From the NCBI GenBank assembly GCA_045591985.1, contig JAZNTV010000077.1, forward strand, positions 18,166-82,165: 64,000 nucleotides of DNA, written 5' to 3'. Every line of letters begins with the position of its first letter. Positions within the stretch are counted from its first letter, which is position 1. This stretch comes from Acutalibacteraceae bacterium (GTDB lineage: Bacteria; Bacillota; Clostridia; Oscillospirales; Acutalibacteraceae). Below, one piece after another: positions 3,888 through 48,184 of this stretch. A program made the position numbers and the translations under genes. Under the pieces are notes generated by a model. The model was not told the DNA's origin. It did no database searches and worked only from the letters and a program-made list of their open reading frames with translations.

Positions 3888-3893
3888 CTGATC

Positions 3894-6224: not shown

Positions 6225-6236
6225 ATATATAACTCC

Positions 6237-7712: not shown

Positions 7713-7750
7713 ATATTCGACCATCCTTTACAGATGTTAGTATTGCCGTC

Positions 7751-23379: not shown

Positions 23380-24171
23380 ATGGCAGAAGAACGGTTGCAA
23401 AAAATCATAGCTGAACGTGGCCTGGCTTCCCGTCGAAAGGCGGAGGAGTTAATTGCACGCGGTAAAGTAAAAGTAAACGGACACGTGGCTACGCTCGGCG
23501 ACAAGGCGGATCCGCGGCGGGATGTGATTTTGGTGGGCGGTAAGCGGCTGACGGCGGCGGAAGCGGCCACCTACATCATGTTGAATAAACCGCGCGGGTA
23601 CGTTACGACTCTAAACGATGAGTTAGGGCGAAAGTGCGTAGCGGAATTGGTCGCTAATGCCGGTGTGCGTGTGTATCCCGTGGGGCGTTTGGATCGTGAT
23701 TCCGAGGGTATGTTGTTGCTCACAAACGACGGCGATTTTGCCAATGCCATTATGCATCCTTCTACACATGTTCCCAAGCGTTATCGTGTCACTGTACGCG
23801 GAAAAGCAGATGATGCGGCGTTACAGACGTTTCGTGACGGCATTGTGTTAGACGGACGGCGTACACTGCCGGCAGACGTATCGGTCGTTTCCGAAGAGCC
23901 GGAGCGCACGGTGTTGGAGGTCGTTTTGTATGAAGGGCGTAATCGTCAGATTCGCCGCATGTGCGAAGCGTTGCAGCTGCAGGTCATTCGGTTGCGCCGC
24001 ACGGCGGTAGGGTCGGTCAAACTGGGGATGTTACCGGTTGGCAAATGGCGGTATTTGACTCCGAAAGAAGTCAAAGCTTTGGTACAAGCCACGGGCGTTC
24101 CGCAAAAAGTGGCGGCCGAGTATATTAAGCGGGGGAGTGTGCCGAATGATCCGTATTCTACCAAACGCTGA
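23380..24171 (+). CDS. rluB: rRNA pseudouridine synthase (RsuA/RluB family)
   Basis: 263 aa. S4 domain RLQKIIAERGLASRRKAEELI and catalytic block VGRLDRDSEGMLLLTNDG. Confidence 0.9.
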   Translation: MAEERLQKIIAERGLASRRKAEELIARGKVKVNGHVATLGDKADPRRDVILVGGKRLTAAEAATYIMLNKPRGYVTTLNDELGRKCVAELVANAGVRVYPVGRLDRDSEGMLLLTNDGDFANAIMHPSTHVPKRYRVTVRGKADDAALQTFRDGIVLDGRRTLPADVSVVSEEPERTVLEVVLYEGRNRQIRRMCEALQLQVIRLRRTAVGSVKLGMLPVGKWRYLTPKEVKALVQATGVPQKVAAEYIKRGSVPNDPYSTKR

Positions 24172-24460
24172 GCGAGACGGCGAATACATTTTGTGGGACG
24201 GCGATGTTGCTTGCGGTAAGGCGTTGGCACGGTTTGACGATCGCGTGCATATCCTCTCGGTAGAGGCACCGGATGCTTTGTTGGCGGAGGGAATGGTGCG
24301 TGCCGTGCTGAATGCCGGGCGGGTACGTGAGCTCGCTTGTGCGGTTTGTGCAAACGAAGAATTGTTCCCGTTGCTTCGTCATCTGGAATTCACACCGTGT
24401 GATGAAGGGATGACCGTGAGCATTCCCGATTTCTTTTTTCGCGGGTGCCAAGGACATTAA
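24146..24460 (+). CDS. Hypothetical protein
   Basis: 104-aa ORF starting after GGGGGAG and overlapping the rluB end. I recognise no motif. Confidence 0.3.
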   Translation: MIRILPNAERDGEYILWDGDVACGKALARFDDRVHILSVEAPDALLAEGMVRAVLNAGRVRELACAVCANEELFPLLRHLEFTPCDEGMTVSIPDFFFRGCQGH

Positions 24461-24586
24461 CAGGCAGGATACTACAAACTTAAAAGGGGTTGTCCGTTTG
24501 TCGGATAACCTCTTTCTGTATGCGATAGAGTTTGAGTAAAATGTATATTTTATGTTGCCTCAAGGTGGGAAATTTCGTTTTTTCTG

Positions 24587-24616
24587 TTGACAGCAAGAGG
24601 GAATATACTGTATAAT
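24587..24616 (+). promoter_or_regulatory. Putative sigma-A promoter of beta-helix/dockerin paralogue 1
   Basis: TTGACA, 18-nt spacer, TATAAT. AT-rich upstream region. Confidence 0.5.
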
Positions 24617-24649
24617 ATAATTAACTTTGTAACGGAAAGGAAGTAGGTT

Positions 24650-27600
24650 ATGAAAAAACGCATTTTGGCAATTGTCCTGTGTGTATGTCTGTTGGTGCCG
24701 TTTATGGCAACAGCCGGCGGTCAGGTCTTTGCTGAAGAGGCAGAAGTGAAGAAGGAGTATATCCTCAGCGAACTGAAAGGACGCGTATCCGTGGTTATGG
24801 ATCTGGGTTCGGTCAGCGCCGGCGGTGGCTTGTTGTACACTTCTCCTGAATTTGATTTCGGTCCGATTGATGTGTCCGGCGAAAACGGCGCTCCGAATTT
24901 TAGCGACGTCGCTATTCAGTTTGACACATACATCCAGGGAACCGATTCGTTCATCGAATACATGACGAGCGGAAAAATGGGTGGACAGTTGGAAGTGACG
25001 AGTAGCGGTATGTGCGACGAAGATGAACTTGGTATGAAGCCCGGAACGGCTTTGAAGTTCACCCCCGGTGAGTGGCGTCGTGTGACTGTCCGCTTGTCCG
25101 ACTTCTATAAGTCCGGCGGTGATTTCGACAGAAAGAAATTTAACTTTGTTCGTATCTATCTTGAAGGTGGTGGGGAAGCGTATACCGGCGCAAGCGGCAC
25201 CTTGAAGATCGTGAACTGGTGCATTGTTGATCTTTCCGTTCCGGCGGAAGAGCGGCCGACCGAAGAGGATCGTCCGCTCGGTGACGGCACGTTCCGCGCC
25301 GATCCGCCGGTGTATGAAAAGATGACGATTGCCGATGGTTACGATAACCGTGTAGACGTGTTTGCGGGTTATAACTTGGAAGAATACCTGAAGAACCATC
25401 CCGAAATTAACATCAACGGCAGCGAAGGCAAGGACTATTCTCCGGTTATCAACTCCTTGTTGGAAAGTCTCGGCGCGAGCGGCGGCGGTGCTTTGTTTAT
25501 TCCGGCCGGCAGATATCCCTGTCGCACAGAGATCAACATACCTGTCGGCACTACGATCGTGGGTGAATGGGCGAATCCCGACCAAAACCCCGAGATCCGC
25601 GGTACGATCTTCGAAGTATACTGCGGCGCAAATGCGACGAACGGCGCGCCGTTTATCTCGATGGATCACCACACAAAGATCAACAACGTGGCGTTCTGGT
25701 ATCCCGAACAGACGGTGGCCTGTGACATTCAGTATCCGCCCACGATCGATATGTATCAGTACACCTTTGTGGAGAACGTGACTTTTGTTAACTCGTTCTT
25801 TGCTATCCAGCAGCAGCGCGGCGCAAACTGCCCGAACGCGTGGAACATCTACGGCACGCCTTTGAATATCGGTGTTGACTTTGATATGGTCGTTGATATT
25901 GCCCGTATTCAAGAAGTGCATTTCTCTCCGGACTATTGGGTGAATTCCGGTTTGCCCGGTGCTCCGACTACGGCCAATGAGATTCAAACGCTGGAAGATC
26001 AGCTTTACAACTATGCAATCGGTATCACCTTGCGTCGTATTGACTGGTCTTACGTGACGTATTCCGACATCACCGGTTACAACGTCGGTCTGATGTTTGC
26101 CGAATCGATCGAAGGCAACCTGCCGAACGGTCAGTGTGTCGGTTTGAACTTTACGGATTGTAAGTACGGTCATTTCTCCTATGGTACGGCGGGTTCGACC
26201 GAGTCGATGCTCGATATTACCATGAAGAATTGTGAGTACGGTGTGTATGTTACCGGCGAACACGACGGTGCTCTGCGTTACTATAACGCAGATATTCAGG
26301 CAACCCAGTATGCGGTGTATCAGGAGTCTGCGTATACGAAGTTGACGTTGATGGCATCCACCGTGCGCGGCGGTCGTGTGTACACCAAGAACGGTAACAA
26401 CACCTTTATTAACAACAAATTCTACACGGCAAAACCGCAGATCGAACTGGATTACGGCACCATTTCGGGTATCGTGATCGGCAACACCGACGTGTATGGC
26501 GATCCGATCAAATGTGAAAACCCCGGTTCTTGTACTTACAGCTATGTAGAAAAGCCTGTCAAGTTGAATGCGTATACCGAAATGACGCGTGAAGAGGCGT
26601 ATGGTAAAGTGCCTGCTCCCGCAAGCGAGAACTATCGTATCCCGACCGATATCGATGTCACCGGTGAGACTGATGCGACCGAAAAGATCCAGTCTTACTT
26701 GACGGAACTCGGTGAACTCGGCGGTGGTACACTGTTCTTGGTTTCCGGTAAGTATCGCATCGATGGCACGCTTTCGGTGCCGACGGGTGTGGAATTGCGC
26801 GGTTCGGCCGACTTCGCTTCGATCCCGAAAGCAGTCAACACCATGTTCTATGTGTACACGCCTGTGGAAGCGGGTAAGGATGAATACACCTCGACCGCTA
26901 CCGTGACGCTTGCGGAAAACAGCGGTATCCGCGGTATCATCTTCAACTATCCCGAGCAGCACAGCACGTATCATGCGACCGAGAAGGTGTATGATCCGAT
27001 CGCTTCTGCCGAACTTGGTGTCGAAACCTATCAGCAGTATTATGAATTTGATTTCCATCCGTATCCGTATGCCATCCGCGGTGCGGGCGCCGATGTGTAC
27101 GTTGTGAACGTGTCGGTGCGTAACGGTTGGAATGGTATCGATCTCAAGACCTATCGTTGCGATAACCACTATGTGGATTATCTCGCGGGTCACTTCTTCA
27201 ACCGCGGTCTTGTGGTTGGTAACGGTTCGACCGGCGGTTACATCCGTAACTACCAGTTCAACTACAACTCCATCTGCCAGGCGCATTCGGAAGTTTGGAA
27301 CGGATTCGGCGGCGAGCCCTCCAGTGTGCAGGTTACTTCGTGGTTCCATCAGCCGATGCAGGCGCAGTTCCAGAACAACTCCATCATCCTGCAGCTCGGT
27401 TATGTAGAAGACCAGCTTGTTTACAACTGCTTCAACTACGCATCGTATATCGGTGTGCATCTGGTTGACGAAGGCGGCCGTGCGGCAAACGCCCGCATCT
27501 TTGGTCACGGTGTTGACTACGGTAACGTTTCCTTGCAGATCGAAGCGGCTGAAGACGTAGAGTTCACCAACATGCAGTTGACGGCGTTCAACCAGTGCGG

Positions 27601-28891
27601 TGATAACGGCAATACCGGCCGTTGGGCGGTCAATCAGGAAGAAAAGCCGATCTATGATATTTGGCTGAAGGATACCTTTGAGGGTGAGATCACCATCACC
27701 AACTTTGTGGAATGGGCCCCCACCCCGACGTCCGGTGTGCGTGTCGACAGCGGTACGCTGAATATGTATAACGCCCAGTTCAGCCACACCAAGTCTCACT
27801 TGTTCGAACTGAACGGTGACGGCAAACTCAACATCATCGGTTTCTGCTGCGATCGTGCGGATAACCCCGCATTGGTGGATAACGATCCCAAGAATCTGCA
27901 TATCACTGCCGGTTACTATTACAGCGAACCCACGGCGACCAAGAATCTCGGTACGTATGAGCATGTGTATCAAGTGGAATATCGTTATTCGGTTCCGAAG
28001 AACGTTATTTTCACGGAAGATTCCGAGATCATGTTTGTGGAATCCTTTGATAGCTATGAACTGACGGAGAATTCGATCATCTCTGTGGACAACTTGAAGT
28101 ATGGTTCGATACGCCGTGGTGCGATCCGTACGCGTTTGTTGGCAAACCAACTGTCTCAGGGTATTAAAGCCGGTCAGGATCGTTACGCGGAAGAGATGCC
28201 GTTTGTGCTTGAGAGCGGTAAGAAGAACGACCTGTATCGTTTGGAATGGCGTGTTATTGTAGATGAAATGCGCGATACGGAAGACAGCGAGATCTATTTG
28301 ATGCTTTCGAATGCGCAGATCAAACAGCAGACGATGTTGACCATTAAGCGTGACGGTTCTGTATACGATCAGAACAATGCCAAGATCGGTACGATCCAGT
28401 TCGGTGAGTATTATCGTTTGGCGGTCGAAGTAGATGCACGTAATGCGAATAATAAGACGGCCACGATCTATCTTTTGAACGACGACAGCCGTGTGATCGG
28501 TAAGGGTACCACCACGGCAATGAGTGCCAACTTCCAAGGCGAAAACACCGTGACCGGTTTCTATTTGGCATCGATGACGACTTGCTTCGACGATGCGCCT
28601 GATACCGAGACGGATATGTCGCTTGACTACTTCTACATCTGCCGCAGCGAAAAGAGCACGATCGGTCGTAATGTGGATCCGAACAGTGTGATGATCGGCG
28701 ATGTCAGCAGCGATGGCAAGGTCGATTCGACCGATGCACGTATGGTGCTGCAGTATTCGGTGAAGAAGATCACCACGTTGCCCGCAGCGGACGCCGCGGA
28801 TGTAGACGGCAACGGCAAGATCGATTCGACCGACGCGCGTTTGATCCTGCAGTATTCGGTGAAGAAGATCAGCGCTTTCCCTGCCGCGTAA
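24650..28891 (+). CDS. Secreted dockerin-bearing protein with two pectate-lyase-superfamily (right-handed beta-helix) modules; putative polysaccharide depolymerase, paralogue 1
   Basis: 1413 aa. Signal peptide ends ..GGQVFA. The two modules open with GGGALFIPAGRYP and GGGTLFLVSGKYRIDG and carry FWYPEQ and FNYPEQ. A 64-aa duplicated dockerin sits at the C-terminus. Confidence 0.85.
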   Translation: MKKRILAIVLCVCLLVPFMATAGGQVFAEEAEVKKEYILSELKGRVSVVMDLGSVSAGGGLLYTSPEFDFGPIDVSGENGAPNFSDVAIQFDTYIQGTDSFIEYMTSGKMGGQLEVTSSGMCDEDELGMKPGTALKFTPGEWRRVTVRLSDFYKSGGDFDRKKFNFVRIYLEGGGEAYTGASGTLKIVNWCIVDLSVPAEERPTEEDRPLGDGTFRADPPVYEKMTIADGYDNRVDVFAGYNLEEYLKNHPEININGSEGKDYSPVINSLLESLGASGGGALFIPAGRYPCRTEINIPVGTTIVGEWANPDQNPEIRGTIFEVYCGANATNGAPFISMDHHTKINNVAFWYPEQTVACDIQYPPTIDMYQYTFVENVTFVNSFFAIQQQRGANCPNAWNIYGTPLNIGVDFDMVVDIARIQEVHFSPDYWVNSGLPGAPTTANEIQTLEDQLYNYAIGITLRRIDWSYVTYSDITGYNVGLMFAESIEGNLPNGQCVGLNFTDCKYGHFSYGTAGSTESMLDITMKNCEYGVYVTGEHDGALRYYNADIQATQYAVYQESAYTKLTLMASTVRGGRVYTKNGNNTFINNKFYTAKPQIELDYGTISGIVIGNTDVYGDPIKCENPGSCTYSYVEKPVKLNAYTEMTREEAYGKVPAPASENYRIPTDIDVTGETDATEKIQSYLTELGELGGGTLFLVSGKYRIDGTLSVPTGVELRGSADFASIPKAVNTMFYVYTPVEAGKDEYTSTATVTLAENSGIRGIIFNYPEQHSTYHATEKVYDPIASAELGVETYQQYYEFDFHPYPYAIRGAGADVYVVNVSVRNGWNGIDLKTYRCDNHYVDYLAGHFFNRGLVVGNGSTGGYIRNYQFNYNSICQAHSEVWNGFGGEPSSVQVTSWFHQPMQAQFQNNSIILQLGYVEDQLVYNCFNYASYIGVHLVDEGGRAANARIFGHGVDYGNVSLQIEAAEDVEFTNMQLTAFNQCGDNGNTGRWAVNQEEKPIYDIWLKDTFEGEITITNFVEWAPTPTSGVRVDSGTLNMYNAQFSHTKSHLFELNGDGKLNIIGFCCDRADNPALVDNDPKNLHITAGYYYSEPTATKNLGTYEHVYQVEYRYSVPKNVIFTEDSEIMFVESFDSYELTENSIISVDNLKYGSIRRGAIRTRLLANQLSQGIKAGQDRYAEEMPFVLESGKKNDLYRLEWRVIVDEMRDTEDSEIYLMLSNAQIKQQTMLTIKRDGSVYDQNNAKIGTIQFGEYYRLAVEVDARNANNKTATIYLLNDDSRVIGKGTTTAMSANFQGENTVTGFYLASMTTCFDDAPDTETDMSLDYFYICRSEKSTIGRNVDPNSVMIGDVSSDGKVDSTDARMVLQYSVKKITTLPAADAADVDGNGKIDSTDARLILQYSVKKISAFPAA
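28697..28888 (+). other. Dockerin module of paralogue 1 (two Ca-binding repeat segments)
   Basis: GDVSSDGKVDSTDARMVLQYSVKK ... ADVDGNGKIDSTDARLILQYSVKK. Confidence 0.8.
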
Positions 28892-28911
28892 AAACAGATA
28901 ATCTTTTATGA

Positions 28912-28957
28912 AATCCCCCGACAATGCGTTCAGGCTCGTTGTCGGGGGATTCTTTAT
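28912..28957 (+). terminator. Intrinsic terminator of paralogue 1
   Basis: 13-bp stem aatcccccgacaa...ttgtcgggggatt followed by cttt. Confidence 0.6.
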
Positions 28958-29010
28958 ATGTAAAAAATTGTTTAAGATATGTAATATATTGTTAATGTAA
29001 TTCTTGTTTA

Positions 29011-29040
29011 TTGACAGCGGCCGGGCCGGGGGAGTATAAT
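29011..29040 (+). promoter_or_regulatory. Putative promoter of paralogue 2
   Basis: TTGACA, 18-nt spacer, TATAAT. Confidence 0.5.
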
Positions 29041-29081
29041 AATTACATTACTTGAATTGAAATTAGGGAGAGGATATACGA

Positions 29082-32000
29082 ATGAAAACACGTTTGGTAT
29101 CGTGCTTGCTGTGTGTATGTTTGCTTTTATCGTGCTGCGGCATGACGATGGGTTCGGTATACGCGGCGGAAGAAGGAGCGAATTATATTATTCGGACATT
29201 CTCTGTGCGTTTTGCCGAAAATATTGTGTTGGGATCGGCCAACGGTGTTCTTGCGACAAAGGGAGAGATGGTTGAAACGACCGACTTGACAAAATACGGT
29301 TACGGAACAGATCCCGATCGCTTGGCTATTCAAGTGGACGTGTACGCCGAGGGAGATGACCTCTTTTGGAGTTTTATAAAAGCAAAGGCGCTACAAGGAC
29401 AGATGGAAGTTACCAGCGGTGGCAAATGTGACGTGGAAGAGATCGGTATCAATCCCGGTATGGCGTTTGCGTTTGAACGCGGTGTGTGGAAACGTGTGAT
29501 CATCCCGCTCTCTCAATTCAACTCCAAAGTCGGCGGTGAGTTTGATCCCACATCGTTCAATTATTTTCGGGTATATTTAGAAGATACGTGCGCGCCTGCC
29601 TTTGCGGGCGGTGTCGGTGTCATTAAACTTCATAACTTTATGTTGGTAGATACAGCGGCCGAGGCGCCCTCGGAAGAGGATCTTCCCGTCGGCGACGGCT
29701 CGTTTGTTCCGGCGCCTCCTGTGTTCCGAAAAATGAATGTCACTCCCGGGTACAATAAGGGAATGACGGTGTTTGCGGGATATAATCTGAAAGACTATCT
29801 TGAAGAACATACCGAGGTTTCGGTGTTGAATGCCAAAGGGGAAGAGGACTACAGTTCAGTCGTCAACTCGTTGCTCAGCGGTTTGGCATCGGTGGGCGGC
29901 GGTTCGCTGTTCATTCCGGCGGGCGAATATGCTTTTCGCCGTGATATTTACGTGCCGGACGGCACCGCGATCATCGGCGAATGGGTGAGTCCCGATGAAA
30001 ACCCGGAGGCACGCGGTACCATACTTAAAGTATACAGCGGTAAGGGGAGCGAAAACGGCGCGTTTATTTCCATGGGTGCTCATACCGTGGTGCAAAACGT
30101 AAGTTTTTGGTACCCTGAACAAACGGTAGACGAGTTCGCGGTGTATCCGCCGACTATCGATCTGAACCAGTATACCTTTGCGAAAAACATAACCTTATAT
30201 AACTCGTATTTCGGTATTCGTTCGCTGACAACGGCAAACTGTCCGAATGCGTGGAACATCTATGGTACGCCTTTGAATATCGGTCTGGATTTCGATATGG
30301 TTATCGATATCGCGCGTATCGAGGAGATCCATTTTTCTCCCGACTATTGGATCGAATCCGAATTGGACGGTGCTCCGACGAGTGCCGCCGATATTAAAGC
30401 GTTGGAAGATCAGTTGTATAACTACGCCATCGGTATCACCTTGCGCCGTATCGACTGGTCGTATGTGACCTATTCGGATATCGAAGGGTATAACACGGCG
30501 TTGATGTTTGCACAGTCGATCGACGGCAACTGGCCGAACGGTCAGTGCGTCGGTTTAACCTTTACCGATTGCAAATACGGTCACTTTGCGTACGGTGTTG
30601 CCAACACCACCGAATCTCTGCTCGATATCACCATGGAAAACTGCGAGTACGGTGTGTACATCACGGGCGAAGCGGACGACCGCATTTATTATGACGGTGC
30701 GATCCGCTACTACGACTCCGATATCGAAGCGTCCCAATACGCGGTATATCAAGAGAGCAATAATCAGCGGTTGAACATAATCGCCTCGGTTATTCGCAAC
30801 GGTCGTGTATACACGAAAAACGGCAACAATGTTTTTATCAACAACGAATTCCAAACCGTAGTACCGCATATTGAGTTGGATTACGGTACGGTGACAGGAA
30901 TTATGATCGGTAATACCGATGCTTACGGCGATCCGATCAAGTTTGAAAACCCGGGACGGTGTGAGTATACCTATAAAGAAGAGCCGATCGAAATAGATAC
31001 CTATGAGAAGATGACACGAGAGGAAGCGGCCGCTCGCGTGGTCGGTCCCGCCAGTGACAACTATCGCATCCCCACCGATCTGGATGTGAGTGGTGTGACG
31101 GACATGACCGAGAAGATACAAAACTATTTGACCGAACTCGGCGAAAACGGTGGCGGTACTTTGTTTTTGATGCCGGGCAAATATCGTATCGACGGTACAC
31201 TTTCTGTTCCGAGCGGCGTGGAACTGCGCGGTTCGGCGGAATATGCGTCGATTCCCAAAGCGATCAACACCATCTTCCAGGTGTATACGCCTGTGGAAGC
31301 AGGGGAGGATGCCTATACGTCGACGGCGACCGTTACTTTGGCGGAAGGCGCTGGCCTTCGCGGCATTATCTTCAACTATCCCGAGCAAGGTCAGACCTAT
31401 CGTGAAGGTGAAAAAGTGTTGGATCCGATCGTGTCGGAACAGACCGGTATCGATACGTATGTGCAGTATTACGAGTTTGATTTTCTGCCGTATCCTTATA
31501 CCGTGCGCGGTACGGGTGCCGATGTGTATCTTGTGAACGTAACGATGCGGAACGCATGGAACGGTGTGGATTTTATGACCTACCGTTGCGATAACCATTA
31601 TATCGACTATTTGGCAGGCCATTTTTATAATCGCGGCATGGTGGTCGGTAACGGGGCTGTGGGCGGTTATATCCGCAACTATCAGTTCAATTACAATTCC
31701 ATTATGATAAACGCGCAAAACTGGTCCGGCTGGGGCGGTATTCCCAATTCGGAGATTACCACTGCAGATTTCCATCAGCCGATGCAGGCGCAGATCATGA
31801 ACAATACCATCATTCTGCAACTCGGTCACGTGGAAGATCAACTTGTGTATAACAATTTCAATTACGCTTCTTATATCGGTGTGCATCTCATCGCAGAGGA
31901 CAGCGGCGCGGCTGATGTGCGTATTTTCGGACACGGCGTGGACGGCGGTGTCGTATCGGTGCAGATCGAAGAGGCCGAACACGTGGAGTTCACCAACTTG

Positions 32001-33317
32001 CAGTTGACTTCGTTCAACCTTTACGGTGACAACCGTAACACCGACCGTTGGGCGGTGGATGAAAGCAAACAACCGCTCTACACTATTTGGGTGAAAGACA
32101 CCTTTGACGGTGAAATTTCCATCTATAATTTTGCCGAATGGGCGTACGGCCCGCATGCGGGTATACGTGTCGATAGCGGTGTGGTGAACGTGTATAACGC
32201 ACAGATCAACCACGAAAACGACCAGAAAGTGCTGTTTGAGTTGCACGGAGACGGTGAACTGAACGTGTACTCCTTTGCTTCGTGGCGTGAAGACAAACCC
32301 ATTGTGGCAGTAGGCTCTCCCGAAAATTTGCATATTACTGCCGGTTTCTATTACAATGAATTTCAAAATACCGATTTGCTCGGCACGTTTGACGCGATGT
32401 ATCCGTATTCCCGCGAATATGCCGTGCCGAAAAACGTGCGTTTCACCGAAGATTCCGAAGTGGTGTTCGCGCAGTCGTTTGATACCTATGAATTGACCGA
32501 AGACAGTGTCGTTACGGTGGATAATCTGAAATACGGTACGGTACGGCGCGGTACGATTCGCGCACGGTTAACGGCAAAGGATATCGTGCAAGGTTTCAAA
32601 GCAGGGCAGGACAAGAACGCATCGTTGCCGTTTGCATTGGAAAGCGGCCGCACGAACGATCTTTATCGCATGGAATGGCGTCTGGTTGTCGATGAAATGC
32701 GCGATGCCGAAGAAAGTGAGATCTATCTCTTCCTTTCAAACGCTAACGTGAAGACACAGAATATGCTGACGGTCACATCGGACGGCACGGTGTACGATGC
32801 GAGCCAAAACAAGATCGGCACGATTCGGTTCGGTGAGTATTATCGCTTGGCGGTCGAAGTTGATGCGCGTAATGCAAACAACAAGACTGCTACGGTCTAT
32901 TTGTTAAACGATGATAGTCGTGTGATCGGAAAAGGGGCTGCTTTGAGATTGGATAACGCCTTCCAAGGCGAGAATACGGTGACAGGTTTCTGGCTTGCGG
33001 CTACGGCTATGCCGAACGATATGCCCGAAACCGAGACGGATATGTCGCTGGATTATTTCTATATCCTCCGCAGTGAAACAAGTACGATTGGCCGTAACGT
33101 AGATCCGAACAGTGTGATGATCGGCGATGTCAGCGGTGACAGCAAGATCGATTCGACCGATGCACGTATGGTGCTGCAGTATGCGGTGAAGAAGATATCG
33201 TCGCTACCCGCTGCGGATGCCGCGGATGTGGACGGTAACGGCAAGATCGACTCGACCGATGCACGCTTGATTTTGCAGTATTCCGTGAAAAAGATCAGCA
33301 CCTTCCCGGCTGCATAG
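29082..33317 (+). CDS. Secreted dockerin-bearing double beta-helix protein, paralogue 2
   Basis: 1411 aa and collinear with paralogue 1. Signal peptide MKTRLVSCLLCVCLLLSCCGMTMGSVYA. Motifs GGGSLFIPAGEYA, FWYPEQ, GGGTLFLMPGKYRIDG and FNYPEQ, plus a dockerin. Confidence 0.85.
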   Translation: MKTRLVSCLLCVCLLLSCCGMTMGSVYAAEEGANYIIRTFSVRFAENIVLGSANGVLATKGEMVETTDLTKYGYGTDPDRLAIQVDVYAEGDDLFWSFIKAKALQGQMEVTSGGKCDVEEIGINPGMAFAFERGVWKRVIIPLSQFNSKVGGEFDPTSFNYFRVYLEDTCAPAFAGGVGVIKLHNFMLVDTAAEAPSEEDLPVGDGSFVPAPPVFRKMNVTPGYNKGMTVFAGYNLKDYLEEHTEVSVLNAKGEEDYSSVVNSLLSGLASVGGGSLFIPAGEYAFRRDIYVPDGTAIIGEWVSPDENPEARGTILKVYSGKGSENGAFISMGAHTVVQNVSFWYPEQTVDEFAVYPPTIDLNQYTFAKNITLYNSYFGIRSLTTANCPNAWNIYGTPLNIGLDFDMVIDIARIEEIHFSPDYWIESELDGAPTSAADIKALEDQLYNYAIGITLRRIDWSYVTYSDIEGYNTALMFAQSIDGNWPNGQCVGLTFTDCKYGHFAYGVANTTESLLDITMENCEYGVYITGEADDRIYYDGAIRYYDSDIEASQYAVYQESNNQRLNIIASVIRNGRVYTKNGNNVFINNEFQTVVPHIELDYGTVTGIMIGNTDAYGDPIKFENPGRCEYTYKEEPIEIDTYEKMTREEAAARVVGPASDNYRIPTDLDVSGVTDMTEKIQNYLTELGENGGGTLFLMPGKYRIDGTLSVPSGVELRGSAEYASIPKAINTIFQVYTPVEAGEDAYTSTATVTLAEGAGLRGIIFNYPEQGQTYREGEKVLDPIVSEQTGIDTYVQYYEFDFLPYPYTVRGTGADVYLVNVTMRNAWNGVDFMTYRCDNHYIDYLAGHFYNRGMVVGNGAVGGYIRNYQFNYNSIMINAQNWSGWGGIPNSEITTADFHQPMQAQIMNNTIILQLGHVEDQLVYNNFNYASYIGVHLIAEDSGAADVRIFGHGVDGGVVSVQIEEAEHVEFTNLQLTSFNLYGDNRNTDRWAVDESKQPLYTIWVKDTFDGEISIYNFAEWAYGPHAGIRVDSGVVNVYNAQINHENDQKVLFELHGDGELNVYSFASWREDKPIVAVGSPENLHITAGFYYNEFQNTDLLGTFDAMYPYSREYAVPKNVRFTEDSEVVFAQSFDTYELTEDSVVTVDNLKYGTVRRGTIRARLTAKDIVQGFKAGQDKNASLPFALESGRTNDLYRMEWRLVVDEMRDAEESEIYLFLSNANVKTQNMLTVTSDGTVYDASQNKIGTIRFGEYYRLAVEVDARNANNKTATVYLLNDDSRVIGKGAALRLDNAFQGENTVTGFWLAATAMPNDMPETETDMSLDYFYILRSETSTIGRNVDPNSVMIGDVSGDSKIDSTDARMVLQYAVKKISSLPAADAADVDGNGKIDSTDARLILQYSVKKISTFPAA
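33123..33314 (+). other. Dockerin module of paralogue 2
   Basis: GDVSGDSKIDSTDARMVLQYAVKK ... ADVDGNGKIDSTDARLILQYSVKK. Confidence 0.8.
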
Positions 33318-33333
33318 ACTCTCAAATACATCC

Positions 33334-33372
33334 ATCCCACCCCGAGAAGTACTTGTCGGGGTGGGATTTTTT
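33334..33372 (+). terminator. Intrinsic terminator of paralogue 2
   Basis: Stem atcccaccccga...tcggggtgggat followed by tttttt. Confidence 0.65.
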
Positions 33373-33442
33373 CACTTATCAACGGCCATATGCAAAAAGT
33401 TATCAAAAGTATGCAATTTCTGCTTGGATATTTATATACATA

Positions 33443-33472
33443 TTGACAACGCGTGGTGATACAATGTATAAT
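33443..33472 (+). promoter_or_regulatory. Putative promoter of paralogue 3
   Basis: TTGACA, 18-nt spacer, TATAAT. Confidence 0.5.
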
Positions 33473-33505
33473 TGTTTTATCCTAAGAAAAGTGAGGACGA
33501 CCAAT

Positions 33506-36500: not shown

Positions 36501-37795
36501 AGTGTGGTTCGGACGGTAATACCCAGCGTTACGCGGTGGACCAGAGCAAGATCCCGCTGTATGATATCTGGTTGACCGATACCTTTGAAGGTGAGATCAC
36601 CGTTACCAACTTCACCGAATGGGCACCGTCCCCGACAGCGGGTGTGCGCGTGGATAGCGGTCGCTTGAATATGTATAATGCGCAGTTCAGCCATACGGTG
36701 AGCCATTTGTTCGAATTGAACGGCGATGGTGAACTGAATATCGTCGGCTTCAGTTCCACTCGCGCCGATAAGCCGAAGATCGTAGATAACGAACCGGAAA
36801 ACCTGTTCATCACGGCCGGTTTCTATCAGAGCGAATTGCAAAATCTGGATGGTATCGGTAAATACGAGCACGTGTATCCTCGTGTGACCCATTATTCCGT
36901 GCCGAAGAACGTGACCTTTACCGATGATTCGCAGATCGTCTTCGTTGAATCCTTCGATGAATACACCTTTAACACATCCTCGACATTCCAGACGGATGAT
37001 ACGCGTTATACCACGTTGCGTCGCGGTGCTGTGCGTATGCGCCTGACCGAGAGTCAGTTATCAAACGGTCTTAAGATCGGTCAGGATAAGAATAAAGAGA
37101 AACCGTTCGCGCTCGAATCCGGCAAGAAGGATTCGCTGTATCGCATGGAATGGCGTATCAACGCAAGTGAGATGCGCGGAACCGAAGACAGCGAGATCTT
37201 CCTGTACTTCTCCAATGACAACGTTGACCGTCAGATCGTATTCACTATCAAATCCGATGGTACGGTATACGATCAAAACGGCACGGCGTTCGCTAAGATG
37301 AACATTGACGGCACGTATTATCGTTTGGCAATCGAAGTGGATGCCCGCAATGCCAATAACAAACAAGCAACGGTGTATTTGTTGGATGATAACAGTCGTG
37401 TGATCGCGAAGAGTACGACCTCGTCGCTGAATAAAAACTTCCAAGGCGAGAACACAGTTACCGGTTTTTGGTTTGTAACGATGGCTTCGCCCTACGACGC
37501 GCCTGACACCGAGACGGATTTTTACGTTGATTATTTCTACATCTGCCGCAGTGAAACGAGCACTATCGGCCGTAACGTGGATCCGAACAGCGTGATGATC
37601 GGTGATGTCAGCGGTGACGGTAAGATCGATTCGACCGATGCACGTATGGTGTTGCAGTATTCGGTGAAGAAGATCACCTCGTTGCCCGCAACGGATGCCG
37701 CAGATGTGGACGGCAACGGTAAGATCGATTCGACCGATGCGCGTTTGATCCTCCAGTATTCCGTTAAGAAAATCAGCGCATTCCCTGCAGCATAA
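33506..37795 (+). CDS. Secreted dockerin-bearing double beta-helix protein, paralogue 3
   Basis: The ORF track start at 33353 is a TTG read-through. True start is MKKRLLALLLSICLLIPFMGISAGDVFA after GTGAGGA, giving 1429 aa. Same module order, with an extra acidic/Ala-rich insert in beta-helix 2. Confidence 0.85.
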   Translation: MKKRLLALLLSICLLIPFMGISAGDVFAAEGEKSFIIKELSPYVSTTIDLNGNGVLFTAPAANFDAMDLSGKGEYDFEDVGIMIDTYLAGSEKFMDYMYKGRFGGQFEITSSGTCDKQEWRCNPGSVVKFEKDGWKRVIIPLTMFSGTAKDDFDKSKFNYIRLYFQGGGLAGESGTVKLINWALVDLTVPEEERPSTEERPLGDGTFEADPPVFKKVNISAGFDDSVAAFAGYNLQEYINEHPDVKITDNNGNLDYTSVVNSLLEGLNAAGGGALFIPAGEWPFRGNIMLPAGTSIFGEWANPDENPEVRGTVLEVYTGAGASDGTPFIQMMQHSQVKNLAFWYPEQSVDTFTQYPPTISTYQYTFVQNVTLVNSYFGIQNNTGANCPNAWNVYGTPLNVGLDFDHVIDIARVEELHFAAKYWMYSGLSNAPTSKADVQKLEDQLYNYAIGITLRRIDWSYVTYSDVVGYNIGLLFDLSTNGNNYPNGQCVGLNFTNCKYGHFSYGASSSTESLLDITMKNCEYGIYSTGTVSGVIQYYNADIQATEYAVYQESSGVKLSLMASTVRGGRVYTKNGNNIFINNKFLTAAPQLELDYGTVAAIVLGNTDAYGDEIKYTNPGRCTFSYDKTKVDLKPYTKMTREEAKGYIKAPESKNYIVPDDLDNKNQEDMTEKIQAYLTELGNNGGGILFLKPGKYRIDGTFVIPTGVELRGSADYASVPKAVNTMLYINTPIEEGKDEYTSTATITMEENSGIRGIIVNYPHQNEKFRKIDTVIDPVKSKEETDKAQEAENLAAAAAGRKPVEVAPIDVMVDYYEFDFVPYPYTIRGTGADIYVVNVSIRNGWNGVDFMTYKCDNHYIDYLAGHFFNRGIVVGGGSENGYVRNFQFNYNSIYQAAGDIWSGFGGEPAKSGVASYFHQPMQAQFNNNSIILQLGHVENQLVYNCFNYASYIGVHAIAEPTGAADARIFGHGVDYGTVSLKVEAAERLEFTNMQLTSFNQCGSDGNTQRYAVDQSKIPLYDIWLTDTFEGEITVTNFTEWAPSPTAGVRVDSGRLNMYNAQFSHTVSHLFELNGDGELNIVGFSSTRADKPKIVDNEPENLFITAGFYQSELQNLDGIGKYEHVYPRVTHYSVPKNVTFTDDSQIVFVESFDEYTFNTSSTFQTDDTRYTTLRRGAVRMRLTESQLSNGLKIGQDKNKEKPFALESGKKDSLYRMEWRINASEMRGTEDSEIFLYFSNDNVDRQIVFTIKSDGTVYDQNGTAFAKMNIDGTYYRLAIEVDARNANNKQATVYLLDDNSRVIAKSTTSSLNKNFQGENTVTGFWFVTMASPYDAPDTETDFYVDYFYICRSETSTIGRNVDPNSVMIGDVSGDGKIDSTDARMVLQYSVKKITSLPATDAADVDGNGKIDSTDARLILQYSVKKISAFPAA
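37601..37792 (+). other. Dockerin module of paralogue 3
   Basis: GDVSGDGKIDSTDARMVLQYSVKK ... ADVDGNGKIDSTDARLILQYSVKK. Confidence 0.8.
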
Positions 37796-37807
37796 TCTGT
37801 AACTTTC

Positions 37808-37846
37808 AAAGAACTCCACAGACCCGAAGGTCTGTGGAGTTCTTTT
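37808..37846 (+). terminator. Intrinsic terminator of paralogue 3
   Basis: 17-bp perfect stem aaagaactccacagacc-cgaa-ggtctgtggagttcttt. Confidence 0.6.
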
Positions 37847-37953
37847 ACACGGGCGTGGATTTGTGGGTTTAACATAAGTTAAACTAAATTTATCACATTT
37901 GTAAAATCGGAACAAATTTCAGAGTTTTTTCTACTGTAACTTTATAAATTCCA

Positions 37954-37982
37954 TTGACAGAAAGACGGAATTGTGGTAAATA
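37954..37982 (+). promoter_or_regulatory. Putative extended -10 promoter of paralogue 4
   Basis: TTGACA, 17-nt spacer ending in TGg, then TAAATA. Confidence 0.4.
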
Positions 37983-38047
37983 TAGTATGCAGGGAAGAGT
38001 GGCATTTCGTGCCGCTCTACACAGTTTATATCGAAAAGGAGAACACA

Positions 38048-41000
38048 ATGAAAAAGCGTATTCTTTCGGTCTTGCTTTCGGTCTGTCTGTTGCTTCCGCT
38101 GGTGTCGGTGGCAGGCATTCAGCCCGTGTCGGCAGCCACCAACTCGGATTACATCATCAAGGAACTTCCGGCGTTCCAAGCCAACGTAACGGCGACGTTG
38201 TCGGCGGGTGGCAGTTTGTGGACGTCCAGTAACGTGAAGTTCGATCCGGTCGATCTGACCAAATACGGTTACAATGAAGATCCTGCCAACGTTGGTTTCC
38301 AGATGGACACCTTCGTGACGGGTGATGCCGCGTTTATGGACTATATGAACAGCGGCTATCTCGGCGGTCAGATGGAGATCACTTCCAGCGGCGTGGCGGA
38401 TAAAAACGAAGCGATGGCGTGGCCGAACAATCTGAGTTTCGGCGAAGGGGAATGGATACGTATCACCATTCCGTTCTCCAAATATTCGGGCAAAGATTTT
38501 AAACCGAATAGTTTTAACTTTACCCGTGTATATTTGAACGGCCCCGAAACGCACGCACCTGCCAAGTATTTTGGCGCTACCGGTACGTTCAAGATCGCCA
38601 ATCTCTGCATCGTGGACTTGCGCGTTCCCGAAAACGAGCGTCCCACGGCGGCGGAGATGCCGCTTGGCGACGGTACGTTTGAGCCCGAAGCGCCTGTGTG
38701 GAAAGAAGTGGAGTTTTCGCCCGGTTACGACGACAGTGTGAAATACGTAGCGGGTTATAACCTTGCGGAATACGTCGCGGAACACGAAGCACAGTTGCGC
38801 GAAAAGGGCTTCGACGGCAGCGACTACACGGCGGTGGTCAACTCGCTTTTGGAAGGCTTGAACCTTGCGGGCGGCGGCACGCTGTTCATTCCTGCGGGTC
38901 ATTATCCGTTTTATGGTGAGTTGCGTGTGCCGGCCGGTATCAGCATCGTTGGCGAATGGTCGAATCCGGATGAAAATCCCGAGATTCGCGGCACGGTTTT
39001 GGAAGTGTACGGCGGCCGCGGCAGCATGGACGGTGCGGCGTTCATCAACATGGGGTCCAGCAGTAAGGTGAGCAACCTCAGCATTTGGTATCCCGAACAG
39101 TCGGCGGAAAACATTGTACAGTATCCGCCCTCCATCAGCACAAATGGATATGCTGTGGTACAGAAAGTGACTTTGGTCAACTCCTATTTCGGCATTCAGA
39201 ACGTAAACACCTGTAACTCTCCCAACGCATGGGACGTGTATGGCACTCCTTTGAATATCGGTATTGATTTCGATAACGTCATCGATATTCACCGTATTCA
39301 GAACATTCATTTCGCGGCAAAATATTGGGAGCGTTCGGGGCTTGCAAACGCTCCGACCACTGCGACACAAAAGCAGTTGCTGAAAGATCAGTTGTACAAC
39401 TACGCCATCGGCATCACGGTGCGCCGTATCGACTGGTCGTACGTTGGGTTCAGTGATATTAAGGGCTACAATATCGGCTTGTTCTTCGACGTTTCCGCCG
39501 GCGGCGGTTACCCGAACGGTCAATGTATGTCGATGACGTTTACCGACTGCAAATATGCCGTGTTTGCCTACGGTATCAGCAGCTGTTCGGAAATGTTGTC
39601 GGATTTCGTGATCAAAAACTGTGAATACGGCATTTATACCGACGTCGATGCCGACGGTATTTTGCAGATGGCGAACATGGAGATCTCGGCGACCCAAGAA
39701 GCCATTCATCAAGGCGGCAAGGTGCGCATGAGTATCGTGAACTCCACCATCCGCGGCGGTGAAGTGGTGCTTGAAGGCGGCAACAACATCTTCATGAACA
39801 ACACGTTCCAAACGGCTGCACCCCATATTACGATGGATTACGGCACGGTGTCGGCGGTGGTGATCGGCAATACTGATTCGTACGGTGACGAGATCAAATA
39901 CGATAACATTGCGTTGTGTACCTTGAATTATGAAGCCGAAAAGGCGGATATTGCGGAGTATACGCCCGTTACGCGCGAAGAGTTGTTCAAGGATGAGGAT
40001 TACGCCCCCAAAGGGGACACCGTACTTTTCCCGCAGGAGATCGATACGACGGGTATGACCGATGTGACCGAAAAACTGCAGGGTTACCTGACGCAGCTCG
40101 GCAACCTCGGCGGCGGTACGTTGTATCTCATCCCCGGTATCTACCGTATTGATGGTACTCTTTCGGTTCCCGAAGGGGTGCAACTGCGCGGCTCACTCGA
40201 TGTGGGCGCACAGCCTGTGGCAAAGAACACTATCTTTATGGTATACACACCCGTCGAAGCGGGTAAAGACCAGTATACTTCCACCGCTACCATCACCTTG
40301 GCGAAGAACAGCGGTATCCGCGGTATCATCTTCAACTATCCCGAACAGAATGCGACCTTCACCAAAGAAGCGGTGACGGTCGGCGAAGGGGATAAGGCGG
40401 TCACGGAAGATTGGTATTACTTCGATTTCGTGCAGTATCCCTTCCTTGTGCGCGGTGCGGGCGAAAACGTCTACCTCATCAATACCACCTTCCGCAATGC
40501 GTGGAACGGTGTGGACTTCAAAACCTACCGTTGTGATAATCACTACATCAGCTATTTGGCAGGTCACTGCTATAACCGCGGTGTGGTGGTCGGTAACGGC
40601 ACCACCGGCGGTGTGATCCGCGACATTCAGTTCAACTACAACTCGATCCTCAGCGCGCCCGGTAAGTGGGCAGGCTTTGGCGGGTTTGAGAACAGCGGTG
40701 CGATCTCGGGCGGTTTCCATCAGCAGATGCAGGCGCAGTTCAACAACAACTCTATTGTCATTCAGCTGGGTGACGTAAACGACCAGATCGTGTACGATTG
40801 CTTCAACTATGCAGGTTACATCGGCACGCATTTGGTGGAGGAAAACGGCGAAGCCGCCAACGTGCGTCTCTTTGGTCGCGGTATCGACTATAACACGGTC
40901 GGCACCAAAATAGAAGCAGGGGAAAACGTGGAATTCCTCAGTTATCAAGCGTGTGCGTTTAACCAGAACGGTTCCAACGGCGGCACCGGCCGCTGGGCGG

Positions 41001-42244
41001 TGGATCAGGAGACCACCCCGATCTACGACATCTGGGTGACCGATACGTTTGAGGGTAAACTGTCGCTCGTCAACATGGTGGAGTGGGGTCCCTCGGCGAA
41101 CGCGGCGATCCGTGTGGATAGCGGTGAACTCATCGTCACCAACGCCACCATTCGACACGACAATACCAAGCGTTTTGAAATGAACGGTGACGGTGTTCTG
41201 AAGATGTATGCCCTGCAATTGGATGGTAACTGGGCGGATGAACTGGCCGATGCCAATCAAGATCAACTCTTTATTAAAGGTGGTTGTTATGCCATCGCGC
41301 CGCCCGAACAGGCAAAAATGGGCGAATTCCTGTATATGAACCTCAACCGTACCCGTTGGTCGGTACCGAAGAACGTGTCCTTTGCAGAAGGAACCGAACT
41401 GATGGTTACCGAAGCTTTTGACGGCTATGAATTCAACAGTGAGAGCGGATATCGCGTTTATGACGCGACCGGGGTGACGGAACGTCGCGGCGAAGTGCGT
41501 TTGCGTATGAATGCGTCGCAATATATACAGGGAATCATGACAGGTCAAAACGCCAAAGAGGTACCCGCATTTGAACTCACAAGCGGTAGCGAAAACGATC
41601 TGTATCGTTTGGAATGGCGCCTTAAGGTGGACTCGATGCGAGATACCGAAGACAGTGATATTTCCTTGTCTGTCTCTACGATCGATCGTAATGTACGCAG
41701 TGAAGAGGTGTTTACTATCACGCGCGACGGTGCGGTGTATCTGAAGGACGACACACTCCTGGGAACGATTACGTTCGGTACTTACTATCGGGTAGCAGTG
41801 GAATACGACGCGCGTAATAAAGATCAAAAAACTATGACGGTCTACTTGTTGGATGACAATAACGGTATTGTCGGAAAGGGGACTGCCACAGTAATGCCCG
41901 ACGTTTTCCAAGGAGAAAAAAACATTTCCGGCTTCCTGCTTAGCAGCATGTCGATGTCGGACGATGCACCGGAGACCGAGACCGACTACACCCTTGACTA
42001 TTTCTACGCTCTGCGCGGCAAAGAAAGTACGATTGCGGCAGGTACTCTGGGCGATGTGGACGGTAATGGTACGGTCAACTCTACCGATGCACGACTGGTG
42101 TTGCAGTATGCGGTGAAAAAGATTGCCGCACTACCGAATGCCGGTGTTGCGGATGTGGACGGTAACGGGGACGTGAATTCCACCGATGCGCGTCTTATCT
42201 TGCAGTATGCGGTGAAGAAGATCCATAAATTCCCGGCGGCATAA
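38048..42244 (+). CDS. Secreted dockerin-bearing double beta-helix protein, paralogue 4 (most divergent)
   Basis: True start is MKKRILSVLLSVCLLLPLVSVAGIQPVSA after AAGGAG, giving 1398 aa. Motifs GGGTLFIPAGHYP, IWYPEQ, GGGTLYLIPGIYRIDG and FNYPEQ. The dockerin sequence is distinct. Confidence 0.85.
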   Translation: MKKRILSVLLSVCLLLPLVSVAGIQPVSAATNSDYIIKELPAFQANVTATLSAGGSLWTSSNVKFDPVDLTKYGYNEDPANVGFQMDTFVTGDAAFMDYMNSGYLGGQMEITSSGVADKNEAMAWPNNLSFGEGEWIRITIPFSKYSGKDFKPNSFNFTRVYLNGPETHAPAKYFGATGTFKIANLCIVDLRVPENERPTAAEMPLGDGTFEPEAPVWKEVEFSPGYDDSVKYVAGYNLAEYVAEHEAQLREKGFDGSDYTAVVNSLLEGLNLAGGGTLFIPAGHYPFYGELRVPAGISIVGEWSNPDENPEIRGTVLEVYGGRGSMDGAAFINMGSSSKVSNLSIWYPEQSAENIVQYPPSISTNGYAVVQKVTLVNSYFGIQNVNTCNSPNAWDVYGTPLNIGIDFDNVIDIHRIQNIHFAAKYWERSGLANAPTTATQKQLLKDQLYNYAIGITVRRIDWSYVGFSDIKGYNIGLFFDVSAGGGYPNGQCMSMTFTDCKYAVFAYGISSCSEMLSDFVIKNCEYGIYTDVDADGILQMANMEISATQEAIHQGGKVRMSIVNSTIRGGEVVLEGGNNIFMNNTFQTAAPHITMDYGTVSAVVIGNTDSYGDEIKYDNIALCTLNYEAEKADIAEYTPVTREELFKDEDYAPKGDTVLFPQEIDTTGMTDVTEKLQGYLTQLGNLGGGTLYLIPGIYRIDGTLSVPEGVQLRGSLDVGAQPVAKNTIFMVYTPVEAGKDQYTSTATITLAKNSGIRGIIFNYPEQNATFTKEAVTVGEGDKAVTEDWYYFDFVQYPFLVRGAGENVYLINTTFRNAWNGVDFKTYRCDNHYISYLAGHCYNRGVVVGNGTTGGVIRDIQFNYNSILSAPGKWAGFGGFENSGAISGGFHQQMQAQFNNNSIVIQLGDVNDQIVYDCFNYAGYIGTHLVEENGEAANVRLFGRGIDYNTVGTKIEAGENVEFLSYQACAFNQNGSNGGTGRWAVDQETTPIYDIWVTDTFEGKLSLVNMVEWGPSANAAIRVDSGELIVTNATIRHDNTKRFEMNGDGVLKMYALQLDGNWADELADANQDQLFIKGGCYAIAPPEQAKMGEFLYMNLNRTRWSVPKNVSFAEGTELMVTEAFDGYEFNSESGYRVYDATGVTERRGEVRLRMNASQYIQGIMTGQNAKEVPAFELTSGSENDLYRLEWRLKVDSMRDTEDSDISLSVSTIDRNVRSEEVFTITRDGAVYLKDDTLLGTITFGTYYRVAVEYDARNKDQKTMTVYLLDDNNGIVGKGTATVMPDVFQGEKNISGFLLSSMSMSDDAPETETDYTLDYFYALRGKESTIAAGTLGDVDGNGTVNSTDARLVLQYAVKKIAALPNAGVADVDGNGDVNSTDARLILQYAVKKIHKFPAA
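42050..42241 (+). other. Dockerin module of paralogue 4 (variant sequence)
   Basis: GDVDGNGTVNSTDARLVLQYAVKK ... ADVDGNGDVNSTDARLILQYAVKK. Confidence 0.8.
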
Positions 42245-42250
42245 ATGAGA

Positions 42251-42290
42251 AAAAAACAGAGAAAATCGTTTGATTTTCTCTGTTTTTTTA
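42251..42290 (+). terminator. Intrinsic terminator of paralogue 4
   Basis: Stem acagagaaaatc-gttt-gattttctctgt flanked by A7 and T7 runs. Confidence 0.65.
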
Positions 42291-48171: not shown

Positions 48172-48184
48172 GGGAGAAACGATA

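Follow-up and report, generated by a model that had tools for sequence, protein, structure and literature searches.

Four dockerin-bearing double beta-helix paralogues of an Acutalibacteraceae bacterium as candidate scaffold-displayed glycan hydrolases of a GH55-related family

We analysed a 64,000-nucleotide stretch of DNA, referred to here as the window, from an Acutalibacteraceae bacterium (GenBank assembly GCA_045591985.1, contig JAZNTV010000077.1, positions 18,166 to 82,165 of the forward strand). It contains a tandem array of four genes whose predicted products share a double beta-helix core and a C-terminal dockerin. The evidence makes it probable that these are four sub-specialised, scaffold-displayed glycan hydrolases belonging to an uncharacterised family related to GH55. 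The novelty lies in the enzyme family within a known display system rather than in a new kind of system, and arrays of this type are already present in public metagenome-assembled genomes (MAGs). The four genes are as follows.

24650..28891, plus strand: gene 1 (G1), 1413 aa; identical to database protein P0001
29082..33317, plus strand: gene 2 (G2), 1411 aa; architecture as gene 1; identical to P0014
33506..37795, plus strand: gene 3 (G3), 1429 aa; architecture as gene 1; identical to P0007
38048..42244, plus strand: gene 4 (G4), 1398 aa; identical to P0026

An earlier sequence-only reading of this DNA had claimed four collinear genes on one strand with these positions and lengths, and the open reading frame (ORF) listing, translation and alignment agreed with it exactly. 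The end-to-end protein alignment contains hundreds of invariant columns. Genes 2, 3 and 4 are 65, 66 and 53% identical to gene 1, gene 4 being the most divergent paralogue, and the C-terminal helix of gene 3 carries an insertion of about 20 aa. The long identical runs quoted in that reading are present but not uniform, as gene 4 reads NSPNAWDVYGTPLNIG and gene 3 reads TYKCDNHYIDYLAGH, with TYKC for TYRC. Its domain order, consisting of a signal peptide, an N-module, two beta-helices, a C-module and a dockerin in each protein, was recovered by Pfam, by AlphaFold2 (AF2) models of parts of gene 1 and, for the signal peptides, by eye. The signal peptides begin with MKKR, continue into a hydrophobic stretch and end in VFA followed by EE. 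The parts of gene 1 are given below in residues.

1-27: signal peptide
28-205: N-module
about 230-650: N-terminal beta-helix (N-helix)
about 660-1104: C-terminal beta-helix (C-helix)
1105-1335: C-module
1346-1411: dockerin

The central element of the reading is the core.

25337..27961, plus strand: double right-handed beta-helix core of gene 1, with conserved Asp residues D412, D416, D465, D831, D838 and D956

The AF2 model of gene 1 residues 200-1120, built from a 55-sequence alignment, consists of two tandem right-handed beta-helices, with a predicted local distance difference test score (pLDDT) of 93.7 and a predicted template modelling score (pTM) of 0.93. Comparison of one helix with the other shows homology (E 8e-10) across roughly the first 107 residues of each, including a YPEQ motif that both have. 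PF12708 matches each protein twice, with scores of 33.3 bits in G1 and 31.4 bits in G2, above the 27-bit cut-off, and lower scores, below it, in G3 and G4; the modelled fold is nevertheless clear. In PF12708 (Pect-lyase_RHGA_epim) proteins generally (GH28-related proteins, AlgE epimerases and phage tailspikes), the N-cap motif GDGxTDxTxAIQ ... GGGxhxhPxGxY is found as it is at the start of each helix here; however, the likeness stops after the cap, and those proteins have a single helix. The NTD/DD/GHG/RIK motif set of GH28 is not conserved in the array proteins, and the GHG of G1 is GRG in G4.

Conservation was measured on 247 relatives aligned to the core, down to about 27% identity. Six Asp residues, three of the N-helix (D412, D416 and D465) and three of the C-helix (D831, D838 and D956), are conserved at 89-100% over these relatives and are invariant in all four paralogues. 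D838 lies within a D-N-H-Y motif (D838-x-H840-Y841), and several aromatic residues are near-invariant as well. The only Glu of the C-helix conserved at 75% or more is E715, which is located in the cap. Three Arg residues of the core, R419, R463 and R761, are also conserved.

The relationship of the core to GH55 was detected by profile and by fold. With the family profile as query, GH55 structures came first in the PDB (5m5z at E 6e-14 and 3eqn at E 6e-13), and a profile made from minimal family members found GH55 at E 7e-17. Foldseek of the core placed GH55 entries 5m5z, 3eqn, 8jhh and 4pex on top at E 1e-8, with 900-1000 aligned columns. Single-sequence searches of the PDB by phmmer returned only dockerins for gene 1, without a GH55 entry at E<=1, and only cap-motif matches for the minimal relatives P0120 and P0105; an NCBIfam scan gave no informative model. 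The array proteins have the single-chain, rib-cage architecture of the GH55 beta-1,3-glucanases (PcLam55A 3EQN/3EQO, CtLam55 5M5Z, MnLam55A 8JHH and SacteLam55A 4PEW/4PEX), in which two tandem beta-helices are joined by a linker. The specific homology is located in the final coils of the N-helix, in the linker and in the C-helix cap; over the catalytic coils no similarity was detected. The catalytic set of GH55 is made up of an acid Glu followed at position +3 by Tyr, the pair Glu-His, a Glu/Ser/Gln/Glu proton relay and an aromatic block, Trp-x-Trp (PMC10637969). The conserved carboxylates here, in contrast, are all Asp, and the array proteins bear additional N- and C-terminal modules and a dockerin. 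Profile and model together point to a remote relative of GH55 with a common fold and architecture and a catalytic signature that is not visibly common. The proteins do not fall with confidence in any family whose specificity is known. The sequence-only reading had held that the family could not be assigned by eye; that statement is now refined to remote GH55 kinship, while the lack of a family with known specificity stands.

The relatives collected by an exhaustive HMMER search form a broad family, with 496 representatives (50% identity clusters) at E<=1e-30, distributed over Clostridia, Bacteroidota and at least one further lineage (Anaerohalosphaera). Named relatives are labelled hypothetical protein, 'GH28-related', 'discoidin domain-containing', 'carbohydrate-binding protein' and, once, 'glycoside hydrolase family 55 protein' (the distant relative P0060, named by NCBI). 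The full architecture of N-module, two helices, concanavalin-A (ConA)-like module and dockerin is limited to about 50-80 clostridial proteins among the relatives collected. Distant relatives are fused to CBM6, CBM35, F5/8-type-C or GH43 domains. In two Bacteroidota loci (L011, 3138-23228, and L012, 3356-14575), homologues with 30-32% identity are found in SusC/SusD/DUF3823 loci, with one to three arabinofuranosidase/xylosidase-type GH43 genes behind each homologue; L011, from Sunxiuqinia, has two GH92 genes and an oxidoreductase in addition. In a further locus (L015) two homologues stand beside GH2. The Bacteroidota type IX secretion relatives P0065 and P0073, which have F5/8-type-C domains, belong to the double-helix family, with E about 1e-100 and 30-32% identity across the core, and the conserved Asp set of the array is found in them too; unlike the array proteins, they have no N-module, ConA-like C-module or dockerin. 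In place of these they have CBM32-like, Big_2 and Por-tail domains, and their genes lie within polysaccharide utilisation loci (PULs) with GH43 and GH92. Closer to the array, an Oscillospiraceae MAG (SIG588; L007, 3632-13417) encodes a fifth paralogue, 57% identical to gene 1 and outside the array, flanked by a regulator of the AraC type, a GH2 of 923 aa and a GH32-like gene; this setting may be one of regulated sugar utilisation. The conservation of the six Asp residues, the GH43 and CBM fusions and the SusC/SusD or GH2 loci of relatives argue for an enzyme rather than an inert protein. The genomic context of relatives points weakly to a neutral heteroglycan rather than laminarin.

The dockerins that had been predicted from the C-terminal repeats are clear.

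28685..28882, plus strand: type I dockerin of gene 1; two F-hand repeats, DVSSDGKVDSTD and DVDGNGKIDSTD, each then followed by ARxxLQYSVKKI
28655-28888, 33080-33314, 37560-37792 and 42010-42241, plus strand: dockerin stretches

PF00404 (Dockerin_1) scores 41.4, 40.2, 45.1 and 38.0 bits in G1 to G4 against a Pfam cut-off of 22.9, and the PDB dockerins were matched by gene 1 at E about 1e-8 (phmmer). Both repeats contain the F-hand loop D-x-[DNS]-x-[DN]-G-x-x-x-x-x-D with its following helix, and a Ser-Thr pair is present in each. They are nearly identical, with the form D-V-x-x-[DN]-G-x-[VI]-[DN]-S-T-D-A-R-x-[VI]-L-Q-Y-[AS]-V-K-K-I. Judged by type I dockerins in general, such symmetry would be compatible with dual-mode binding of a cohesin. 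Among G1-G3 the dockerins share 90-93% of their residues and 87-91% of their nucleotides, and the G4-type dockerin is without the RNVDPNSVMI linker. Within the window, dockerin motifs occur in the four array genes only. Secreted enzymes that end in a type I dockerin with two near-identical F-hand repeats are also the plan of cohesin-dockerin complexes in gut Clostridia, such as cellulosomes, the Ruminococcus bromii amylosome and the Limousia 'mucinolysome' (PMC12997984), whereas here four paralogues of a single family stand one behind the other, each apparently its own transcription unit. Genomes of Limousia were first filed under the name Acutalibacteraceae, the label of some of the closest-relative MAGs, and a text search of the main text of the mucinolysome paper gave no GH55, beta-helix or pectate terms (PMC12997984).

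The core is flanked by two modules of predicted binding function.

24731..25264, plus strand: N-module of gene 1, beta-sandwich-like, putative glycan-binding, about 175 aa; weak SGBP_B_XBD match
27962..28654, plus strand: C-module of gene 1, concanavalin-A-like lectin fold; AF2 pLDDT 89.7, all-beta jelly roll

The N-module of gene 1 alone matched SGBP_B_XBD (PF18329) at E 5.8e-4, and 6 of 17 family members match it, with a best E of 8.6e-5; the sole PDB match of the N-module profile was 6d2y at E 1.2. These values point weakly to a putative SGBP-B-like glycan-binding domain, which we take as a lead only. Some relatives (P0047, P0249, P0245, P0053, P0050 and P0247) have two tandem N-modules before the helices, and such duplication is consistent with an independent, shuffled binding module. 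For the C-module, Foldseek placed legume lectins on top (E 1.4e-7, TM-score 0.43-0.48), and the highest TM-score, 0.61, was to a domain of BT_1020, deposited as a sialidase; sequence searches with this module returned noise only. The modelled fold of the C-module is ConA-like, and sugar binding by it is putative.

The array is old. The order G1-G2-G3-G4 after rluB recurs in at least four other MAG contigs, some of them labelled Acutalibacteraceae or Oscillospiraceae. In a neighbour-joining tree each window gene falls in its own orthogroup, with members from 5-6 contigs (gene 2 orthologues are on 4 other contigs, and the gene 4 orthogroup is on 6 contigs), and the duplications therefore predate these species. 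Outside the dockerin the DNA identity between paralogues is 45-78%, with a longest identical run of 38 nt; recent amplification and whole-gene conversion were rejected on these values. The regions of the proteins differ in how they have diverged, as the following identities show.

N-module: 0.39 between paralogues of the same genome; 0.71 between orthologues of different genomes
Core: 0.66 between paralogues of the same genome; 0.81 between orthologues of different genomes
Dockerin: 0.84 between paralogues of the same genome; 0.73 between orthologues of different genomes

By these identities the N-module is the most paralogue-specific region, and the dockerin tracks the genome, evolving in concert within it, as is expected if all copies must fit the same cohesin. 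The homogenisation of the dockerin may have come about by either gene conversion or selection.

Each gene appears to be a transcription unit of its own, with the following signals, the promoters being of the sigma-70 consensus type.

24587..24616, plus strand: gene 1 promoter, TTGACA, 18 nt, TATAAT; 12/12 consensus
29011..29040, plus strand: gene 2 promoter, TTGACA, 18 nt, TATAAT; 12/12 consensus; site also in related loci L001-L004
33443..33472, plus strand: gene 3 promoter, TTGACA, 18 nt, TATAAT; 12/12 consensus
37954..37982, plus strand: gene 4 promoter, TTGACA, 17 nt, TAAATA with a TG-n extended -10; found by eye
28907..28958, plus strand: terminator hairpin after gene 1, dG -28.7 kcal/mol, z -5.6; then a weak U tract, AUUCUUUAU
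33334..33373, plus strand: terminator hairpin and U tract after gene 2, dG -25.7 kcal/mol, z -5.4
37809..37849, plus strand: terminator hairpin and U tract after gene 3, dG -29.4 kcal/mol, z -7.1
42250..42289, strand unassigned: terminator hairpin after gene 4, dG -21.4 kcal/mol, z -6.7; A/T-flanked

The promoters of genes 1-3 are the sole 12/12 sites in an 18.6-kb scan, each 34-42 nt 5' of its start codon; that of gene 4 scored below the threshold of the scan. A consensus-like -35/-10 pair with a 17-18-nt spacer is found again upstream of array genes in the four related loci, where spacers are divergent. The site 5' of the first array gene is present in all four with a divergent spacer, and the spacer motif of the gene 3 promoter, GGTGATACAATG, is kept in L001, L002 and L004. 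We read the recurrence of the hexamers despite diverged spacers, in this sequence comparison, as a phylogenetic footprint. A U tract is clear behind 3 of the 4 hairpins. The hairpin after gene 4, with its A/T flanks, is possibly bidirectional; the scan detected it on the minus strand too. The leader of gene 4 is also longer, with about 60 nt as compared with about 25-35 nt in the other three, and just 5' of its ribosome-binding site it contains an inverted repeat, AGAGTGGCA...TGCCGCTCT (37996-38018, plus strand), that the other three leaders do not have and that could be a gene-specific regulatory element.

Codon usage separates the array from its surroundings. The effective number of codons (Nc) is 41.6-46.6 in the array genes and 45.8-52 in 13 other window genes, indicating a stronger codon bias. 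TTA, CTA and TCA codons occur at 0-7 per 1000 in the array genes and at 7-24 in neighbours. The avoided codons are TTA, TCA, CGA, CGG, GGA, GGG, ATA and ACA, and the preferred ones GGT, CGT, ATC and AAG, a pattern that suggests highly expressed genes. Promoters, terminators and codon bias together support four separate and probably highly expressed units. In the sequence-only reading each gene had been given its own promoter and its own strong hairpin terminator, and an operon had been set aside in favour of separate units; the promoter and terminator signals agree with it on all three points. Opposite the whole of gene 1 lies a stop-free minus-strand ORF of 1454 aa (24560-28924), and genes 2-4 likewise face antisense ORFs, of 424-750 aa. 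None of the 1413 codons of gene 1 is TTA, CTA or TCA; the reverse complements of these codons are stops, so that the antisense ORF of gene 1 results from codon bias and is not itself a gene.

From these observations we propose the following course of events. Four anciently duplicated enzymes would be transcribed separately and exported by their Sec signal peptides, and the dockerin would anchor each exported enzyme in a cohesin scaffold whose gene would lie elsewhere in the genome. The N- and C-flanking modules would hold a non-cellulosic glycan. By analogy with GH55, hydrolytic cleavage would take place in the cleft between the two helices, which would be lined by the near-invariant Asp residues D412, D416 and D465 of the N-helix and D831, D838 (in D838-x-H840-Y841) and D956 of the C-helix. 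The paralogues would keep the catalytic machinery and differ most in the N-module, and their most likely targets are different glycans, or one complex glycan in different contexts.

Several results weigh against this proposal. Dockerin and two PF12708 matches per protein had been expected beforehand and both were found, the dockerin in all four proteins, yet the PF12708 scores of G3 (23.4 bits) and G4 (13.9 bits) are under the Pfam cut-off. The resemblance to GH55 is remote, with TM-scores of 0.30-0.42 and 9-12% identity, and the HMMER alignment to GH55 is limited to the cap motifs plus the end of the N-helix, the linker and the C-cap, of which the N-cap part is common to all PF12708 proteins. 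The GH55 acid Glu-x-x-Tyr and the Glu-His pair have no conserved Glu counterpart over the 247 relatives, as judged by sequence pattern, and therefore the catalytic assignment is by analogy only. The N-module match to SGBP_B_XBD is below the Pfam cut-off of 26.4 bits, with a best single score of 20.5. The window ORFs scanned contained no cohesin, and the neighbourhoods of clostridial members are mostly housekeeping and uninformative on substrate.

The first alternative is that the array encodes ordinary GH55 enzymes, that is, inverting exo- or endo-beta-1,3-glucanases (laminarinases) on a cellulosome-like scaffold, acting on fungal, yeast, algal or callose beta-glucan, in which case dbCAN would assign them to GH55. 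The top rank of GH55 structures by profile and fold, the common architecture of two helices and a linker and the GH55 name given to P0060 are in its favour. GH55 itself is also very diverse: a PcLam55A (3EQN) fragment finds MnLam55A at E 3.7e-5 and misses SacteLam55A in the PDB. As a query for full-length GH55 the fragment returned fungal exon fragments only. GH55-annotated genes are reported to be enriched in a rumen metasecretome (PMC4035507). On the other hand, phmmer with G1 and the two minimal relatives yielded no GH55 past the generic cap, and the whole-chain TM-scores are low. The catalytic Glu, the Glu-His pair and the aromatic block of GH55 (PMC10637969) are unmatched by any conserved Glu, with only Asp conserved in the array family. 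Bacteroidota relatives adjoin GH43 and GH92, and GH2 is found beside others. Laminarin loci are typified by GH16, GH17, GH3 or GH30 genes, a set that these relatives do not adjoin. We consider ordinary GH55 enzymes unlikely.

A second alternative replaces hydrolysis by another beta-helix chemistry, for example that of a PL6-type or AlgE-type polysaccharide lyase or C5-epimerase with an acidic polysaccharide as its substrate. Two-domain PL6 alginate lyases and AlgE epimerases are among the fold and profile matches, and the conserved Asp residues together with R419, R463 and R761 could suit a lyase site. However, the AlgE-type matches span only the 45-60-residue N-cap motif of all PF12708 proteins, and the PL6 matches have TM-scores of 0.16-0.21 with a root-mean-square deviation above 20 A. 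The relatives co-occur with the neutral-sugar hydrolases GH43, GH92 and GH2, and no uronate-pathway genes were noted among their Pfam-annotated neighbours. This chemistry is accordingly given a low probability.

It is also conceivable, if quite improbable, that the proteins are non-catalytic, serving as adhesins or structural scaffold cargo in which the helices are rigid spacers or binding surfaces, as in pneumococcal PfbA. PfbA (3zpp, 4mr0) is among the matches, two lectin-like or binding-like modules flank the core, and the catalytic residues are putative. Six carboxylates, aromatic residues and the Asp-x-His-Tyr motif are nevertheless near-invariant over 247 proteins and located in both helices, and the relatives are fused to GH43 or CBM domains and stand within glycan-utilisation loci.

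An origin as phage tailspike or depolymerase genes, or as a recently amplified or mobile cassette, is effectively refuted: PF12708 is common in tailspikes and tailspikes are among the fold matches, but the viral fold library gave generic beta-helix matches only (TM-score 0.33 or less), on which phage origin was rejected, no mobility or phage genes were seen among the flanking ORFs scanned, the GC content is that of the surroundings, synteny with rluB is kept over the related MAG loci examined, and the paralogues are divergent members of old orthogroups with signal peptides and dockerins.

The reading as scaffold-displayed hydrolases can be carried further. Tentatively, and with more doubt than belief, we suggest that the core may be a new GH family in a GH55-related clan, with an active site built on Asp and a specificity that differs from beta-1,3-glucan. 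The paralogues might then divide the labour, each through a recognition module of its own, and would jointly dismantle one complex non-cellulosic glycan on a dedicated cohesin scaffold; the candidates would be fungal, plant or host heteroglycans with Ara, Xyl, Gal or Man.

As the sequence-only reading had noted, the block stands between an rluB-like pseudouridine synthase on one side and thyX and tmk on the other, with no mobility genes seen among the flanking ORFs scanned. GC content is flat over the block, and neither Rfam families nor tRNAs were found within the window. A 107-aa ORF (24137-24460, plus strand) overlaps rluB at its end and takes up most of the interval ahead of the gene 1 promoter; the related locus L001 has a predicted gene of 103 aa at the matching position (9513-9824). 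Elsewhere in the window, a cluster on the minus strand (222-7724) resembles one for maltodextrin or glycogen utilisation, with two ABC permeases, a solute-binding protein, a 775-aa glycogen/maltodextrin phosphorylase and a GH77 4-alpha-glucanotransferase, and two adjacent, slightly overlapping YceG/MltG-like genes (474 and 366 aa) lie at 46747-49162 on the plus strand.

In the literature on GH55 or PF12708 with dockerins or PULs we found no description of the array family, and no solved structure or assay was found for it. The sequence-only reading had called the array the best candidate in the window for an undescribed polysaccharide-depolymerase system, and had held that the claim would fail if all four proteins fell confidently in a well-characterised family and such arrays were already annotated and common in related genomes. 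Half of this holds: identical tandem arrays do occur in related MAGs, but named relatives are just 'hypothetical protein'. The choice of candidate was reasonable; it was overstated in so far as activity, substrate and cohesin partner are inferred. The array proteins are still a candidate enzyme family. If active, they would offer a first point of entry into a family of some 500 protein clusters (50% identity, E<=1e-30) that is often fused to CBM or GH43 domains and found within glycan-utilisation loci. The array is a clean natural case of module-level evolution, in which the recognition module diverges, the core is kept and the dockerin is homogenised within the genome. In the lineage of the relatives, some of whose MAGs are Acutalibacteraceae, it would extend cohesin-dockerin display beyond starch and mucin.

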